Shown here: piece after piece, positions 2,877-20,330 of the stretch | How the letters are laid out: every line of letters begins with the position of its first letter | Numbering within the stretch: position 1 is the first letter of the stretch | NCBI GenBank assembly: GCA_964542795.1 | Contig: CAZIUX010000001.1 | Coordinates: 1-29,285, forward strand | DNA length: 29,285 nt | Direction: 5' to 3' | From: an uncultured Muribaculaceae bacterium | GTDB taxonomy: Bacteria; Bacillota_I; Bacilli_A; RF39; UBA660 | The notes under the pieces: model-generated | The model's database searches: none | What the model saw: the letters and a program-made list of their open reading frames with translations, nothing else | What the model was told of the DNA's origin: nothing | Made by a program: the position numbers and the translations under genes

Positions 2877-5800
2877 CTTTAATTTGAATGTTGATTGATT
2901 TAGATACACCGTATAAACCATTGTTTTCGTAAACAACAGGTTCAAATACATAATTTCCTGGATTTTTTGTTAAAAAGTTTATTTTTACTGATTTAGAAGT
3001 ATCGCGATATGAGCATACAATAAATTGCATATTTATAGAATCATTTTTAATCAAATATATTTCTGAAAATTTTTCTTTTTCTGTTCCATAATATCTTAAT
3101 CCGTTAGGAACAGCAATATTCAAGGTTCCACAGCTATCTTTTTCTAAATTTTGCATGTTTACTAGCAAAGAATATTCATTGTTTAAACTCATATTACTAT
3201 CTATTCTAGAATCAACCTTATATACAATTTGTTCTTTATATAACTCCGATGGCGATCCAGTATATATTACTTCTGCTATGATTGAATTACTATCAGTTTT
3301 AAAGACAATATTTTTTAAGTCATCTTTACTCAATTCAATTTCTTTTGCTGACAATTTATTTAATGTGATTTTTTTATCATTTACATAAACAATATTATCT
3401 TTTTCTAAATATGGCATAGAATTATTTAAATAAGAAATGATCGCAAAATTACGATATTCATTGCTCGATTTAAGAATTGATTCAATCATACCTTTAGCTG
3501 AGTCAGGATCTATTAACGTATTTAATAAAGTTAATAATTCATAATTGTTGTTTGTTTTTTTAACACTACTCAATTCATTTTTATAAATTGATCTTGCTGT
3601 GCTATAATCTCCTAAAAATGCATATGACAATGCATAAATAATTGATTCATAATAATTTCTCTCATTGTTTTTTAAAATACTTAATTCACCCATGATTGGT
3701 TCTTTATTGCTCGCTAAAAATAATAATGCTTCGTATAGTCTTGTTTGTGCTATGTTTTCTTTACTCATTTCATAATAAGCTAAATATACAGCTCGATCAA
3801 GCCATTCTTTTTGGTATAAGTCTTTAGCATATTTATTTGTTAATGCAGATAAAACATATGATTTTTCGGAAGCTGGCAATAATTTTAGTAATCCATCTTG
3901 AAATGATTCTGGTATACTCACTTCAATTTGATTATCCTCTAGATATATTTTGTTTAAAATTTCATTCGCTGAATATCTTCCTACAAACTGATCAAGTCTT
4001 TGATAATAAGAATATTTTAAGGCGCCTATTAATCTTATATAATATTTTAATGATGAGTCAGACAATAGTAGCCTTACACTATCTTTGTTGGCATTAATAC
4101 TAATTTTATTATTATTTTTAATTTCATATTCTTTCACTATTTTTACTTTTTGATAATTATCTTTTATTTCAAAATCATATTCAACACCATCTGAATTTTT
4201 TTCGTTCGAAGCAATAACTCCAATTTTGTATTTTCCTATATTCATTTTTGGCATCTTGTAATAAGTGTATGATCCAGTTTTGCCTTCTGTTTTTCCAACT
4301 TCTTTTCCATTTAAATAATATTGATATAAGACATTTTCTTGATTAATACTTGTTGATTTAGCCGGAATAACAAAATCATCAGAAGGTTTAACGCCACTCA
4401 TTGTCGATGTTTCGACAAAAAAATCTAACTTCGAACTTATTTTTATATTAGTATTTCCTGAGTATAATTCCGGATTTGCAGATATTGCAGTTATTCTGAA
4501 TGTTGTTAATGAATCATTAAGCTTGAATTTTATTTTTGCTTTTCCATTTTTATCTGTTTTTATATTTTGAAAAATAATCGTATCCCCAAAATCGTTTCTG
4601 TATTCTCCGTCGTCAGCTCCTTCACCACCATCGCCATTTGATGAATACGGTAATAGTTGATGACTACTTACTTGATAAAACGGCAAATATTTGTCATAAA
4701 ATAATCTATTATTAATATCAATTTCATCATCTTCTAATTGAAATACTGCTTCATCGACAACACTTATTAAAACGTCTGATTCAATTCTATTTCCATTTTT
4801 ATCTTTAACTTCTATATTTAAACTCACTTCATCTTTTGGTTTATAAGTGCTTTTATCAGTTTTAAGAATAATTTCTGTTTTTCGATCATTTTCATTAAAA
4901 TCTAAGTATTGTGACTCTGCCATAATTATTTTTTCACCATCAAAATATGCACCTACAATATTTGTGCCTGGAAAAAAAGTATTAGTAAATGTTTTTTCGT
5001 TAGAATTCAGTGAATAATCAATTATTTTCTCTTTATAAAAGTAACTTAAATACAATTTATCTTTTATATCTTTTTTTTCATAGTCTTTCATTGTTGTATT
5101 AATCGTTTCATCAATGCTATATTTCATTTTTAAATTAGGATAATATGCACATAAATTTAATGAACTATTGTATGAAGAATTACCATTTATGTTATAAGAG
5201 AAATTTAGTTCACTGCCTTCATAATAGAGGTTATGCCAATAATCATTTCCTTTGTAAGGGTTATTTGAATCACTTAAATATAAAGTAGAATCAGGAGTTG
5301 TACCAAAACTTGAGTTAGCTGAAAGAGTAAATTCATAAGTTATTAATTGATTGTCATTATCAACGGTCTCATATTTTAAATTTTCAATTATTGCTTTTCC
5401 AGCATTTGTTTTAACCGAAATAATATCCCCGTCTATATTTTCACAAGTATCAATAACGCGATATTTTACTACAGTTTTATAGTAGGGATTATAATATTCA
5501 TAGTCTTTTTTACTACATACTTTTTTTCTTACGGATATCTTTACATTTGAATCAAAAGGATAAATTTCATAGCTATCTCCCTTTGAAATATCTATTTTAT
5601 TCGTTTCGATTTCAAGATAATATTTATCGTTTTTATCAAATTTAATGTTTCCATCTACAACAATGTCTTTAGATAATATTTTAATAGTTTTGAATTTTAA
5701 TCCATTATAATCTTGATAATCTTTAGAATATAATTCAATTTCACTATAATCAAATATACCATAAGTATTATATGAATTAGCTATCAAATTTAATGCGCAT

Positions 5801-14038: not shown

Positions 14039-15853
14039 CTATTTTTTATATGTAAAAGGTTTGATTGTTTCTTTTATTAAACCAATATCTGTTAAACTTA
14101 AATTACTCTTATAAAGGATTGCAGATACTAACATTTCCTCAGTAAATGGTTCATTATTTGACAGAAGTGCTTTTAAATTCCTTAAAACTTTTCTAGATGA
14201 TACTGTTATTCCACTAAAACTATATATACTATTATATAAGAACTTATCATTAATCTCTTTAATTATGCTTTGATCAACATCAGTAGACAATCTTTGTGAT
14301 TGACTTAAATACTCTTTGTGATTTTTGGATAATATTTCATTACCATCATCAATTATATAATTATCTAAACAACAATCATCAACCAAAAAATTTTGTCCAG
14401 TAACAATTGCACCTATTAATCTATTATTCTTAATTATTTCAAGACCAACGCTGTACGCAATTACTATTCTTTTAGTTATTTTATTGATGTCATAGCCATT
14501 TACATTTGTAAAATCAATGGTTTTTGTGTCAATTCCTAGTTCTATCATTACATCAATTAAATCAAATAATTTAGGGTTATTATATACTTCAAGATCACTA
14601 ATATTATATTGTCTTGCTAATTCGCCAATTTGTTTTAAATTTTCAGTTTTCATTAATAAAATATTGGGATTATAGTTTGGATTACTAATATCAATTTTAT
14701 ATTCTTTTAGAATTTGAATATTGTTAAGTAATCTTTTATATAACGAATTAGGTATTTGAATTCCTTTACTTAAGAATGATTCATATTTATTTTGATCAAT
14801 AAATATACTTATATTTGAGATTATAAAATCAGTAGTTATATATCCACTTAATTGAAATCTACCGATATTATTAGCTATTTCTGGAGTAGAAGAACATAGT
14901 ATATAGTCCAGACCTTGATTAACAATACTATCTAAATTGATACCCATACTCTTTATAGAATTTAATATTTCTAAACTAGAGCTGGCATCACAATAAGTAG
15001 TAATAAAATCTTTGTTTTGAAACATATCTATAGATAGGTGGTATTTTCTAAGAATACTGTTTAATTTTTCTTTTTCATTTTGGTTACGTTGCCCAAGTAA
15101 TTTTAAATCTAGTTCATCATTTACGAATGTTTGATTATCAACAATTAACTGAAATAAATAACTTAGTGTTCTTTCTGAAAATAGTCCTCTTCCTTTTTGA
15201 TCAATAGCTAATAATGGATTTGTTCCGTTATTTTTAATATTTTCTAACATTTGGATGTGAACCTCAGAAATTTTAATTGCTTTTTGATATAGTTTTTCGA
15301 ATGATTCTTTTTCTTTTTCAACATATGTTCCTAAATCTTTTAAATAATCTTTTAGAGCATCCATTGCATAATAAAATAATTTTTTATTGATTCTAGTAAA
15401 TAATAATTTACTGTCCTCATTAAGTCCTCTTATTGTATATCCTCTACCAATAGTTACTAATAATGCATCACACATTTGAGAATAGTTTAAGTATTTATTT
15501 AAAAAATTAAATAAAACTAAGTAATTATTATGTTTTAAGATTGATATCGTTTCTTTGTTTAATAATAATTCCCTTATTTCAATAATTTTATCTAAGTCAA
15601 TACTATTGATTATTTTTTCTTCATCAACTAATTCATCTAAAATAGATTTGGAATCTATATTAGGATTTTTAATAATAATATAACTCAATAGAAATCCAAA
15701 GTTATTCATTGTTTCACTTTGTTCATCAGAAATATCTAAGGGATCTCCAAATGCTGAAACTAAACCTAAATTTTGTTTGATTCTTTCACAAGTATACTTA
15801 CTTTTTTCAAAATCATCAGAAATAGACTCAGCTATTTTCATGATATTCATCAT
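14039..15853 (-). CDS. Hypothetical 604-aa helical-repeat protein
   Basis: Long ORF with no TM. Its ATG directly follows the upstream TAA, and the SD AGGAGAG lies inside the upstream gene's last codons. ~30-32 aa periodic motif in residues ~260-475. Confidence 0.85.
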   Translation of the reverse strand: MMNIMKIAESISDDFEKSKYTCERIKQNLGLVSAFGDPLDISDEQSETMNNFGFLLSYIIIKNPNIDSKSILDELVDEEKIINSIDLDKIIEIRELLLNKETISILKHNNYLVLFNFLNKYLNYSQMCDALLVTIGRGYTIRGLNEDSKLLFTRINKKLFYYAMDALKDYLKDLGTYVEKEKESFEKLYQKAIKISEVHIQMLENIKNNGTNPLLAIDQKGRGLFSERTLSYLFQLIVDNQTFVNDELDLKLLGQRNQNEKEKLNSILRKYHLSIDMFQNKDFITTYCDASSSLEILNSIKSMGINLDSIVNQGLDYILCSSTPEIANNIGRFQLSGYITTDFIISNISIFIDQNKYESFLSKGIQIPNSLYKRLLNNIQILKEYKIDISNPNYNPNILLMKTENLKQIGELARQYNISDLEVYNNPKLFDLIDVMIELGIDTKTIDFTNVNGYDINKITKRIVIAYSVGLEIIKNNRLIGAIVTGQNFLVDDCCLDNYIIDDGNEILSKNHKEYLSQSQRLSTDVDQSIIKEINDKFLYNSIYSFSGITVSSRKVLRNLKALLSNNEPFTEEMLVSAILYKSNLSLTDIGLIKETIKPFTYKK

Positions 15854-16834
15854 TTATAACACTCTCCTTAAATTATTATCTAAGTATTCTATTATTTCTC
15901 CCGCTTCTTTTTTGAAAGATTCTTCATCATACTCAGAAATTAGGGAGTCAGAAAATGATTTAATTCTTTTTATGCGTTTTTGAAGAGTGCGATAACTTGC
16001 CTCTTCAGAATTTTGTTTTTTTATGAACACTTGGGTAATAAAACAATATTCCTTAACAAAAGTAAAGACCACACGACAGAAACCACTTCTTGATTCTAAA
16101 GCCGCCATCGAAATGAATTTCTTTTGATTAATTGGTTTTCCTCTTATAATTGAAATAAACGATTCTTTTATATCTTCATAAAATTCTGGAGATATACTTT
16201 TAATATCAGAGTAGAAGTCAATATTTCCTTGGGGAGTTTTCAAAAATATCGGTTTATAATTGGAAACAAAAGGTGCTGTTTCTTCAACAGTTTCTTCTTT
16301 GGCACTTGATAAAAATTTAATTGTTTCTATTAATTCTATAATTTTCTTTTTTTCTCTTTGTTTTTCTTCTTTATATTCTTCTTCTTTCAACATGTCATTA
16401 TAAAATTTTAATTCTGAAAACTTTCTTAATAACAATTGTACTAGTATTTCGTCTTTGTCTTCTCTTTCAAGAATATCGTCAATTATATCATCAATACTTA
16501 TACCTTCTTCAAGCAAATTTAAATAAAGTTGAACAGAATCATTTTCCTTAATACATGTTGGCTTAATAGGGACAAATGTTTTTGTATTTTCAACTTTGTT
16601 TGGTAATTGTGTGGTTTTAGAAGCAATGATTTGATCAGTTATAATTGTTCTTTTTAGCTCTTCTTTTTTTCTCAGTAAAATAATTCTATTATGTTCTACT
16701 ATAGTTTCTAGAATCATTCTTTTATTTTCAAAGTCATCACCTGAAATAGAGAACATATTAAAAATTTCTTCATAGTCTCCAATGAATTCTACTGATTTAT
16801 TTATATATTCTTTAATCTTTTTTATTTCGGCCAT
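15854..16834 (-). CDS. Hypothetical 326-aa protein with a helical N-terminus and a C-terminal RelE/ParE(Gp49)-like domain; probable start 16834
   Basis: SD-like GAGGGGG 7 nt before ATG GCC (MAEIKK). C-terminal YKPIFLKTPQG...ALESR...RVVF...ITQVFIKKQ matches the recalled Gp49/RelE pattern. Confidence 0.72.
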   Translation of the reverse strand: MAEIKKIKEYINKSVEFIGDYEEIFNMFSISGDDFENKRMILETIVEHNRIILLRKKEELKRTIITDQIIASKTTQLPNKVENTKTFVPIKPTCIKENDSVQLYLNLLEEGISIDDIIDDILEREDKDEILVQLLLRKFSELKFYNDMLKEEEYKEEKQREKKKIIELIETIKFLSSAKEETVEETAPFVSNYKPIFLKTPQGNIDFYSDIKSISPEFYEDIKESFISIIRGKPINQKKFISMAALESRSGFCRVVFTFVKEYCFITQVFIKKQNSEEASYRTLQKRIKRIKSFSDSLISEYDEESFKKEAGEIIEYLDNNLRRVL

Positions 16835-16860
16835 AAAAAAACCCCCTCTTTTGAGGGAGT
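16835..16860 (-). terminator. Intrinsic terminator of rplJ-rplL
   Basis: Minus strand ACTCCCTC-AAAA-GAGGGGGT followed by T6, ~30 nt after the rplL stop. Confidence 0.85.
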
Positions 16861-16889
16861 ATTCTAGCAAATAACTACTATTTTGTCAA
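16861..16889 (-). promoter_or_regulatory. Near-consensus sigmaA promoter for the accessory pair
   Basis: TTGACA (16889-16884), 17 nt spacer, TG-c-TAGAAT (16866-16861). Confidence 0.8.
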
Positions 16890-16890
16890 A

Positions 16891-17256
16891 TTATGCTAAT
16901 TCGATAGTAGCGCCGGCTTCTTCAAGTTGAGCTTTAACTGTGTTAGCTTCTTCAGCAGGAATGTTTTCTTTAACATTTCCTCCGTTGTCTGCTAAAGCTT
17001 TAGCTTCAACTAATCCTAAACCAGTTAATTCACGAATAATTTTAATTACTTGAATTTTAGCTGCTCCTGCATTTTTTAATACAACAGTTTTAGTTTTAGG
17101 TCCTTCTTCTTGAGCTGCTGCAGTTGGAGCTGCTACTGCTACTGCAGATGGATCTACTCCTAATTCTTCTTTCATTAAATCAACTAATTCTTTAACTTCA
17201 AGAATAGTCATTTCTTTTAATGAATCAATAATTTCTTTTGCGCTTAATTTTGCCAT
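16891..17256 (-). CDS. rplL: 50S ribosomal protein L7/L12
   Basis: [36 protein letters not shown]. Confidence 0.99.
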
Positions 17257-17277
17257 CTTTTTTCTCCTCTTTCCTTT

Positions 17278-17778
17278 TTAGTTATTTTCTTCACTCTTTT
17301 TGTCAGCATATAAGTCTAAACAAATTGCGACATTTCGAACATGTTCCATTAATCCACCAGCAAACATTGATAGTAAGCCTTCATATGATGGAATTGTTGC
17401 ATATTCTTTGATAACATCTACAGTGACAACTTTATTATCAATAATACCAGTTCTAATAGTCATTAATTTACTAGTAGTACTGTATTTATCAACAGTTTTA
17501 ATTGGGTCGATGATATCACTACCAAATACAAATGCATTTGGGCCTTCTAAGAAAGCGTCTAAGTCATATCCAAGATCATTTAATGCTCTTTTAACAAGAG
17601 TATTTTTATAAACTTTAATATCACTTGATGATTTTCTTAATTCTCTTCTTAATTCACTAATGTTAGAAACAGTAGATCCCTTGTAATCAACAATAACCAT
17701 TGTTTTTGAATTACTTAGCTTATCTTTAATTTCTTGAACAACATCGTTTTTTAAATTAAGATTTCTTTCACTTGCCAT
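17278..17778 (-). CDS. rplJ: 50S ribosomal protein L10
   Basis: VDYKG.TV...ELR, KVYKNTL..RA, LEGP, ATIPSYEGLL. Confidence 0.98.
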   Translation of the reverse strand: MASERNLNLKNDVVQEIKDKLSNSKTMVIVDYKGSTVSNISELRRELRKSSSDIKVYKNTLVKRALNDLGYDLDAFLEGPNAFVFGSDIIDPIKTVDKYSTTSKLMTIRTGIIDNKVVTVDVIKEYATIPSYEGLLSMFAGGLMEHVRNVAICLDLYADKKSEENN

Positions 17779-17801
17779 TTTTGCCTCCTTATTTATTATT
17801 T

Positions 17802-19407: not shown

Positions 19408-19463
19408 GTTTATTTATATGAGGTAAATATATTTGTGATATCATTATAATAATGGAGGTATTT

Positions 19464-20330
19464 ATGATAGATTTACATTCTCATTCAATTTGTTCAGATG
19501 GAGAATTATCTCCTATTGAATTATTAAAATTAGCAGAAGAAAACAAACTAGAAATATTTTCAATTACAGATCATAATACCGTTTTAGCTTATAAATACCT
19601 TGAACATATAAATGTTAAAACATATTTCTCTGGAAAGCTCATTAATGGTTGTGAAATTAATTGTGGTTTTGACGGGTTAAGAATCGAAGCTCTTGTCTAC
19701 AACTTCGATACTAAAATTCTTGATAACTTTTTAAAGACATATTATTCAACTGATATATATAAAAAAAGTAATATCAAAGAGTTTCAAGAATTATATAATA
19801 AATGTTTAGTAAATAACTTAAGAATAGATAGTAATTTAAAATATGATCCAGAAAAAGAATTCCCAATGAATTTTATTTATAATGAATTAACCAAATATAA
19901 AGAAAATGAAATAATAATGGGCTCGGAAGAATTTAATTCTAGAGCATTATTTTATAGGAAGTGTACCTCTAGTAAATCTTATGTTTTGTTTTGTGATTTC
20001 ATGGATTCAATTCCTTCTTTAGAAGAAGTATCAAAAATTGTTAGATCGTGTGGAGGAAAAATATTTTTAGCCCATCCTTTTGGTTATCAACTTGATAATT
20101 ATTATGACACTTTTAATAAGTTGGTTAACAGTAAATTGTTTGATGGTTTTGAATGCTTTCATCCAAACTTTGACGAAAGACAAACTGATTTCTTAATCAA
20201 TTATTGTAAGGTAAATAAATTATTTATGTCAGCCGGTTCAGACTTTCATCGTTTTGGTGATCGATTATTCATTGGTCGTGGTAAAAATAATTTTAATGTT
20301 GATAAAGATGTTATAAGTAATTGGTTATAA
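19464..20330 (+). CDS. PHP-domain metallophosphoesterase (YciV/TrpH-like); probable start 19464
   Basis: DLHSHS..SDG, ITDHN, GCEI, AHP and GSDFH motifs. SD GGAGGT precedes ATG 19464. Confidence 0.92.
   Translation: MIDLHSHSICSDGELSPIELLKLAEENKLEIFSITDHNTVLAYKYLEHINVKTYFSGKLINGCEINCGFDGLRIEALVYNFDTKILDNFLKTYYSTDIYKKSNIKEFQELYNKCLVNNLRIDSNLKYDPEKEFPMNFIYNELTKYKENEIIMGSEEFNSRALFYRKCTSSKSYVLFCDFMDSIPSLEEVSKIVRSCGGKIFLAHPFGYQLDNYYDTFNKLVNSKLFDGFECFHPNFDERQTDFLINYCKVNKLFMSAGSDFHRFGDRLFIGRGKNNFNVDKDVISNWL

Follow-up and report, generated by a model that had tools for sequence, protein, structure and literature searches.

A 58-nucleotide candidate terminator and promoter between rplL and a RelE/HigB-like cassette, with a predicted link between transcript origin and Shine-Dalgarno exposure

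How might a potentially toxic gene that lies 56 nucleotides (nt) behind rplL avoid being expressed together with the ribosomal proteins? The question is raised by a locus in a 29,285-nt stretch of DNA (hereafter the window) from an uncultured bacterium, the first 29,285 positions of contig CAZIUX010000001.1. The assembly comprises 0.9 Mb in 143 contigs, with ~27% G+C and a completeness of 77%. On the minus strand of the window, a 58-nt element (16889-16832) links rplL to a two-gene cassette, predicted to encode a 326-amino-acid (aa) protein with a RelE/HigB-like domain and a 604-aa helical partner. We propose that the element is a composite of terminator and promoter, in which exposure of the Shine-Dalgarno (SD) sequence would depend on where the transcript began. 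This is the best explanation that we can offer for the locus, and we hold it with moderate confidence.

All coordinates of the element are given as read along the minus strand. The rplL stop codon TAA (16893-16891) is followed, 2 nt on, by the -35 hexamer TTGACA (16889-16884), which is kept in the alignment of orthologues. A spacer of 17 nt leads to the extended -10 element TG-c-TAGAAT (16869-16861), identified in a consensus scan; a strain variant of the hexamer reads TAAAAT. Directly adjoining is a hairpin consisting of the 5' arm ACTCCCTC (16860-16853) in the discriminator region of the promoter, an AAAA loop (16852-16849), and the 3' arm GAGGGGGT (16848-16841). Six T residues (16840-16835; seven if 16841 is included) separate the hairpin from the ATG of the 326-aa gene (16834-16832). 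Several of these parts appear to serve twice: the -10 element doubles as the A-rich sequence bordering the terminator stem on its 5' side, the 3' arm is also the SD of the 326-aa gene, and the T tract would be both the U tract of the terminator and the spacer between SD and ATG. The 20 nt before the ATG contain GAGG/GGGGG as the only SD-like sequence, and the protein N-terminus starting at this ATG is conserved among orthologues. An initial annotation of the locus had described these motifs on the minus strand and had singled out ATG 16834, with GAGGGGG as its sole SD-like sequence. We found all of the motifs where they had been placed.

The element is not an assembly artefact, given that the identical hairpin is present in an independent assembly (strain L039) and that a fraction of 0.74-0.83 of sampled words from window positions 15800-17800 was found in 14 DNA runs. 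More generally, the stretch is present in many runs from anaerobic digesters and wastewater. The layout is rare. The genome contains 237 terminator-like hairpins outside same-strand genes, two of which have a start codon within 12 nt; only the 58-nt element combines such a start codon with an abutting promoter of at least 10 out of 12 consensus matches. The hairpin palindrome occurs once in the genome, and a search of 200 other family genomes for the hairpin motif with its T run gave no match. Wider locus scans of genome contigs and metagenome contigs returned only the known genus members and one copy of the form found in genome G005 (see below), and a word-indexed protein search returned only a near-identical strain. 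Elsewhere in the same genome, at ~5520-5600 on the plus strand of contig C20, there is a promoter with 11 out of 12 matches and a TG, the -10 of which ends 14 nt before an 8-bp hairpin; the start codon follows 20 nt past the stem. In contrast to the 58-nt element, this hairpin would be inside the transcript, possibly as a 5' stem-loop or attenuator.

The promoter scores 11 out of 12 in the consensus scan, with TG, and has the features of an extended -10 promoter of the sigma-70/sigma-A type (TTGACA, 17-nt spacer, TG, TAGAAT). Orthologues of the 326-aa gene were available from three of five same-genus genomes and from metagenome assemblies. In an alignment extending from the -35 hexamer to the ATG, the elements TTGAC(A/T), TG and TA(G/A)A(A/G/T)T persist in the window, L039, L040, L042, G005/L038 and G002, and degraded versions of them in G004 and L043. 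The spacer, by comparison, has been randomised across these lineages, the proteins of which are 30-38% identical to that of the window. Conservation of the promoter extends to loci where the orthologous gene is not located beside rplL. Matches of at least 11 out of 12 with TG number 23 in the 0.9-Mb assembly, compared to 1-7 in shuffled genomes, which is a roughly sixfold enrichment; irrespective of TG, there is no excess (117 matches of at least 11 out of 12, compared to 102-117 in shuffled genomes). Of the 23 matches, 14 are located at most 200 nt upstream of a same-strand start codon. The distance from -10 to ATG in these 14 promoters is mostly 17-33 nt, and it is 26 nt in the 58-nt element. 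Given its conservation, the enrichment of the TG class and the usual distance to the ATG, the cassette promoter is, judged by its sequence, a typical and conserved promoter of this organism. The dedicated promoter proposed in the initial annotation is thus supported by the orthologous loci, including those away from rplL. No other promoter-like site with at least 9 out of 12 matches was detected by the consensus scan on the minus strand between 16890 and 16960.

The hairpin has eight base pairs, five of them G-C, a loop of 4 nt and a T7 tract, and is the top terminator-like site within 9 kb in the consensus scan. Its calculated free energy is -12.3 kcal/mol when folded alone, and its 111-nt context has a z-score of -3.89 relative to shuffled sequences. 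A G+C-rich stem-loop with a U tract past the end of a gene is the structure of an intrinsic terminator. The hairpin begins 30 nt past the rplL stop codon and is the sole candidate for the rplL terminator in the window. Terminator-like hairpins were found downstream of rplL in 22 of 29 relatives scanned from the family and class, with a median start 12 nt past the stop codon and a median free energy of -9.65 kcal/mol; their sequences differ in every relative. The hairpin in the window is no weaker than these terminators. These observations support the earlier proposal that the hairpin is the putative rplL terminator. In genomes G001 and G003, which do not contain the cassette, rplL and its terminator are directly followed by rnr, indicating that the cassette is an accessory insertion behind the rplL terminator. 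A search of Rfam (matches with E <=1) returned nothing at the 58-nt element and only the L10 leader upstream of rplJ. We considered a riboswitch or leader attenuator and ruled it out, as there is no Rfam match, the leader is only ~18 nt long, and no alternative pairing is available.

The start site of the cassette mRNA is the pivot of our proposal. Transcription usually begins 7-9 nt past the -10 hexamer. With the hexamer ending at 16861 and the stem beginning at the adjoining 16860, the usual spacing predicts a start at U16854, C16853 or A16852, which are the last two bases of the 5' arm and the first A of the loop. The pyrimidine-purine step C16853/A16852 favours A16852. We folded RNAs with different 5' ends. 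In RNAs beginning in rplL or at any point as far as 16857, the GAGG core of the SD was paired (probability of being unpaired, ~0-0.03), whereas 5' ends at 16854-16851 left the SD unpaired with a probability of 0.88-0.99 and a minimum free energy of -3.6 kcal/mol. A start at ~16852-16854 and the distinction between a free and an occluded SD had both been put forward in the initial annotation; they agree with the geometry of the promoter and the folding models, which are the two lines of evidence bearing on them.

The following model is suggested by these features. Two overlapping signals belonging to two transcription units, the rplJL terminator and the cassette promoter, would be accommodated in 58 nt. 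A sigma-A-type promoter (16889-16861) would drive the cassette of the RelE/HigB-like 326-aa protein and its 604-aa helical partner, and the terminator (16860-16841 plus T7) would fall within the 20 nt that follow the -10 element of this promoter. An mRNA initiated at this promoter would lack the 5' arm and hence form no hairpin; it would not terminate at the T tract, and its SD would be free on a leader of 18-20 nt. RNA derived from rplJL would have both arms and mostly terminate at the T tract. In any RNA that reads through, the SD would be locked in a stem of -12 kcal/mol and the transcript would not be translated. As the rplL stop codon is situated 31 nt upstream of the stem, a terminating ribosome should not melt the hairpin. 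Transcripts initiated at the cassette's own promoter are thus probably the only ones to avoid termination and reach translation. What we observe are the motifs, their conservation, the pattern among relatives and the contrast in folding; from these we infer where transcription starts, how efficiently it terminates, that read-through RNA is silent, and that insulation is the selected function.

Six RNA runs contain part of the stretch, all in the form of assembled contigs, which are blind to transcript starts, ends and levels. None of the assembled contigs from these six runs bridges positions 16791-16863. In run X15, a contig of depth 19 extends from 17590 to 16864, and pieces of the 326-aa gene have a depth of 2-3. 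Position 16864 is a G/A polymorphism in L039, and the break may possibly be an assembly bubble. Contigs of two different studies (X16 and X19) both end at 16912 on the minus strand, within the last rplL codons, in a GCCGGCGC stretch. One of the two has sequencing-adapter letters at that end. The shared end might reflect RNA processing, a hot spot of fragmentation or the way the reads were assembled.

Relatives of the organism provide a series of related arrangements. In the window and strain L039, the gap between rplL and the 326-aa gene is 56 nt, there is no separate rplL terminator, the sequence from -10 to ATG folds with -14.1 kcal/mol, and the T tract is T7. The gap is likewise 56 nt in L040/L041, a different species, again with T7 and no separate terminator, and the fold is -15.0 kcal/mol; the sequence there reads TTGACT-N17-TG-t-TAGAAT, AGCCCCTC-ATT-GAGGGGTT, T residues and ATG. 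In L042, where the gap is ~100 nt, rplL has its separate terminator, the fold amounts to -10.1 kcal/mol and the T run is T4; CCCTC-ATAA-GAGGG(G) is kept after the same promoter. In G005/L038 (gap ~110 nt, -7.8 kcal/mol) and G002 (interrupted by a contig break, -7.7 kcal/mol), there is a separate terminator and no T run, and only ACCC...GGGT is retained of the hairpin. L043 has a gap of ~128 nt, a separate terminator, no hairpin (0 kcal/mol) and no T run. In G004, the gene is not behind rplL, so that a separate terminator is not applicable; the fold is -3.5 kcal/mol and there is no T run. The more distant family members L044 and L048-L050 have no such hairpin. Thus, a long T tract and the strongest stems are found exactly where a separate rplL terminator is missing, namely in the window and L040. 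The G run of the SD is conserved in all orthologous leaders, including those without a hairpin.

Stem pairs were compared from separate folds, as the alignment by MAFFT shifts the 3' arm of L040, the loop of which has 3 nt instead of 4. From the window to L040, a U.G pair is changed to C-G and a C-G pair to G.U; pairing of the RNA is kept, symmetry of the DNA is not. Compensatory changes had been named in the initial annotation as a check on the hairpin, and those in L040 do preserve pairing, within a set of only three related lineages that have the hairpin. The window, L040 and L042 share one register: counted from the -10 hexamer, the last base of the arm is number 8, and number 9 is an A. 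In a tree of the 326-aa gene and in a tree of L10 and L12, the window groups with L042 and G005/G002, joined in the L10 and L12 tree by G001/G003. Both trees place L040 near G004 and not as the sister of the window (split support, 94/98 and 81/87). Judging from this series, the merged form of terminator and promoter either is ancestral or arose twice.

The 326-aa gene (16834-15854, minus strand) encodes a helical N-terminal part and a C-terminal domain resembling HigB, RelE and Gp49, as judged from the fold and from Pfam matches within the family. The window protein itself has no match in Pfam, PADLOC, NCBIfam or PHROGs. An exhaustive profile search defined a family of 338 representatives, and seven of 42 aligned members match Pfam Gp49 (PF05973). 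The AlphaFold2 model has a mean predicted local distance difference test (pLDDT) score of 88. The top Foldseek matches in the PDB are the toxins HigB, YoeB, RelE, ParE and YafQ, which cover the C-terminal ~90-118 residues with E-values from 9.5e-4, probabilities of 0.9-1.0 for most of the top 20, and target TM-scores of 0.5-0.6. Arg254 and Lys272 are invariant. A search of PDB sequences with the family profile found nothing; within the PDB, the toxins came up only in the fold comparison. In its predicted fold and basic residues, the C-terminal domain fits the RelE/ParE superfamily, and the modelled domain makes the label 'potentially toxic' used in the initial annotation a reasonable one.

The partner gene (15853-14039, minus strand) begins directly at the stop of the 326-aa gene and encodes an all-helical protein of 604 aa belonging to no known family. 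It has no match in Pfam, PADLOC, NCBIfam or PHROGs, and matches only unnamed clusters in the Atlas (score <=0.84). Its AlphaFold2 model has a pLDDT of 70, and Foldseek found nothing in the PDB below an E-value of 0.2. The partner is unlike known antitoxins. A helical protein of 582-669 aa follows the 326-aa homologue in L040, L043, L044 and L050. We detected neither transposase families nor terminal repeats at the cassette, and recognised no DNA-binding domain in either protein. The location of the cassette varies; in G004 it sits elsewhere in the genome.

How else could the arrangement have come about? It may be the product of plain compaction. In that case, the hairpin and T7 are the rplL terminator, moved beside the cassette promoter by the loss of ~50 nt; occlusion of the SD is a by-product without selected insulation, and the cassette is expressed from its own initiation and from leaky read-through. 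The ~55 alignment columns in which G005 and G002 have their separate terminator are indeed missing from the window, and rplL terminators turn over rapidly, as seen from their differing sequences. At 27% G+C, a G-C stem forms most easily around a G-rich SD, and the G run predates the hairpin, since it is conserved as an SD in the hairpin-free leaders. Furthermore, a layout that is unique in the genome does not reflect a general design rule there. Compaction has difficulty, however, with L042, which keeps CCCTC and GAGGG in register despite having its own upstream terminator and only T4, suggesting selection on pairing beyond the need for a terminator. It also leaves unexplained why the 5' arm is conserved while the adjoining promoter spacer has been randomised. 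We regard compaction as unlikely, but as a serious contender. Selection might instead act on the DNA, with the inverted repeat CCCTC-N3/4-GAGGG being mainly an operator at the start site, through which a cassette protein autoregulates the promoter, and the RNA hairpin being secondary. Palindromes overlapping the promoter are the typical site of autoregulation in type II toxin-antitoxin operons. The RelE/HigB-like domain of the 326-aa protein would be in keeping with this, as would the single occurrence of the palindrome in the genome and the absence of the motif with T run from the 200 other family genomes; the core palindrome of 5+5 nt has no mismatch in the window, L040 or L042, and coincides exactly with the predicted start site. 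On the other hand, the changes at the outer pairs (U.G/C-G and C-G/G.U) make use of G.U wobbles, by which pairing in RNA is maintained and symmetry in DNA is not. The half-sites stand 3 or 4 nt apart, depending on the lineage, the long T tract is restricted to loci where the other terminator is missing, and, as already mentioned, neither cassette protein has a recognisable DNA-binding domain. An operator as the main function thus appears improbable to us.

Two further possibilities concern the promoter. If transcription started elsewhere, or from a promoter inside rplL, the cassette mRNA would carry the whole hairpin, which would either stabilise the RNA from its 5' end or serve as a constitutive attenuator and translational brake. 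5'-terminal stem-loops are indeed known to stabilise mRNAs in Firmicutes. Against this, a start 6-9 nt downstream of a -10 element that ends at 16861 excludes the full arm of a stem beginning at 16860, the minus strand between 16890 and 16960 offers no other promoter-like site with at least 9 out of 12 matches, and a transcript with the full hairpin and T7 would mostly end before the ATG. We consider this highly improbable. Finally, consensus-like motifs may have met by chance in an AT-rich genome, leaving a terminator of weak function only. The number of matches of at least 11 out of 12 without the TG requirement, which lies within the range of the shuffled genomes, would allow for this; the roughly sixfold enrichment of the TG class, the conservation of the promoter across seven lineages and the recurrence of the same compact layout in L040 make a chance meeting barely credible.

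Several points count against our own proposal of a composite terminator and promoter. The tree support for two independent origins (94/98 and 81/87) is weak. The evidence from covariation is thin, as only three lineages have the hairpin and these are related. L042 has kept the hairpin despite an upstream terminator, which implies that the hairpin is not simply a replacement terminator, and a role at the DNA level, as an operator or C-rich discriminator, could be the reason for its conservation. Moreover, polymerases coming from rplJL have to cross the cassette promoter; the promoter may be occluded as a result, and part of the expression may come from read-through. With a terminator located downstream of the promoter, cassette expression may drop when ribosomal-protein transcription is high. 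In its most far-reaching form, our proposal states that a single 20-nt hairpin discriminates between transcripts by origin, terminating and silencing rplJL RNA while being invisible to the cassette's own promoter, which starts in the loop; that it arose separately in two lineages, built on a stem that already paired with the SD, after loss of the separate terminator; and that it was selected to uncouple a RelE-like module from ribosomal-protein transcription. We put this full version forward only tentatively.

Along the minus strand, the locus is arranged as nusG, rplK, rplA, a promoter with 12 out of 12 matches, an L10 leader, rplJ, rplL and the 58-nt element, followed by the 326-aa gene, the 604-aa gene, a terminator (14035-14006), a frameshifted rnr and smpB. 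The rplJL promoter, TTGACA-N17-TATAAT (17946-17918), was identified by consensus scan and sequence, and overlaps the last codons of rplA. The L10 leader RNA (RF00557; 17912-17792) is a full-length match with 75.5 bits, compared to a gathering score of 44, and an E-value of 4.5e-11. Within it there is a terminator-like hairpin at 17828-17806. With a perfect promoter and a full-length L10 leader, rplJL is a separate, strongly promoted unit, apparently autoregulated as in Bacillus. The open reading frame (ORF) of rplJ (L10; 17778-17278) was assigned with the help of a Pfam Ribosomal_L10 match of an orthologue, and rplL (L7/L12; 17256-16891) by its matches to Ribosomal_L12 and L12_N. The terminator at 14035-14006, identified from the sequence, is of the intrinsic type and closes the two-gene unit. 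Having a promoter on one side and a terminator on the other, the two genes behind rplJL constitute a bounded unit.

Some features of the neighbouring genes deserve mention. The rnr gene (RNase R; 13968-11867, minus strand) consists of two overlapping ORFs that are split inside the RNB domain, with Pfam RNB positions 1-109 in one ORF and 122-324 in the other. We considered translation table 4 (TGA encoding Trp) on account of this split and rejected it, as the long ORFs are open under table 11; the split is not mended by reading TGA as Trp and is due to a frameshift or an assembly error. The genome uses the standard bacterial code. The product of rplK (L11; 19294-18677, minus strand) has 205 aa and an acidic C-terminal extension of ~60 residues rich in Glu, Asp and Lys. 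This extension is conserved in the genus, the orthologues in L040 and L042 being similarly long (200 and 204 aa, respectively). A gene for a PHP-domain protein (19452-20330) is located on the opposite strand between nusG and rplK, and breaks the usually contiguous nusG-rplKA cluster.

If the proposed mechanism is true, the element would be a minimal natural insulator of ~58 nt, allowing an accessory and possibly toxic module to sit behind an operon that is among the most strongly transcribed in the cell without being co-expressed. With transcription starting inside the terminator stem, it would extend the known coupling of promoters and terminators to an inverse geometry, and tie such coupling to translation. 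It would also be a compact part for synthetic biology. The series within the genus, from a separate terminator without a hairpin, via a separate terminator with an SD hairpin, to the merged form, may show how a composite element is assembled. A word of caution applies to operon calling in reduced genomes: a gap of 56 nt without a free-standing terminator can still be the boundary of a transcription unit.

It remains to compare the element with known systems. In some riboswitches and attenuators, the terminator stem also contains the SD, so that the expression platform is dual-acting. The 58-nt element resembles these in that one stem would block both transcription and ribosome binding. It differs in having neither ligand sensing nor an antiterminator, and a leader of only ~18 nt; the choice would be made by the position of the start, not by a signal.

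In promoter-coupled terminators, which have been described as widespread, the two signals overlap within 35 bp; with the stem occupying the -35 position and the T tract preceding the -10, the upstream transcript ends ~10 bp short of the start site, and translation was not considered (Fletcher et al. 2026, bioRxiv 10.64898/2026.08.19.745784). As in these systems, tandem units share bases in the 58-nt element, the -10 being the A-rich flank of the stem, and polymerase interference is to be expected. The order is inverted, however: stem and T tract are located downstream of the -10, the predicted start is inside the hairpin, and termination would occur ~12-20 nt downstream of it. The published geometry is seen in G004 (L008), where ~30-90 nt past the rplL stop codon the T tract of a terminator runs straight into a TTGACA -35, followed by a TATGAT -10. 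Both arrangements, the published one and its inverse, are therefore present behind rplL in the same genus.

Two insertion sequences offer closer parallels in function. The left end of IS200 has a rho-independent terminator at nt 12-34 against impinging transcription, with the start of tnpA at ~nt 40, and a separate stem-loop that sequesters a AAGGGGGU-type SD (PMC4513863). A terminator against outside transcription near the start site and a stem sequestering the SD would be common to both systems. IS200 uses two inverted repeats, and its SD stem is part of its own mRNA, whereas the element described here has a single hairpin that is predicted to be absent from its own mRNA.

IS10/Tn10 and IS50 are protected from external promoters by fold-back inhibition (Davis, Simons & Kleckner 1985, Cell 43:379, as cited in PMC13181058). 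Transcripts entering IS10 from outside fold back on the ribosome-binding site and are poorly translated, and those from its own promoter lack the upstream strand (PMC13181058). The likeness is close: the element's own start is predicted to be inside a potential RNA structure, and only external transcripts would carry the complement that sequesters the SD. Sequence and folding place the start within or after the 5' strand and the SD under the 3' strand, as in IS10. There are two differences. IS10 protects a transposase, whereas the gene here encodes a RelE/HigB-like protein in a chromosomal two-gene cassette behind a ribosomal-protein operon; and the IS10 structure is not the terminator of an upstream operon, whereas here a single 20-nt hairpin is predicted both to terminate and to occlude. 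The principle of insulation is itself not new, as IS10 and IS200 guard in similar ways against outside transcription. By its defining features, the 58-nt element falls outside the IS10, IS200 and promoter-coupled terminator families; in its mode of action, it would work like IS10.

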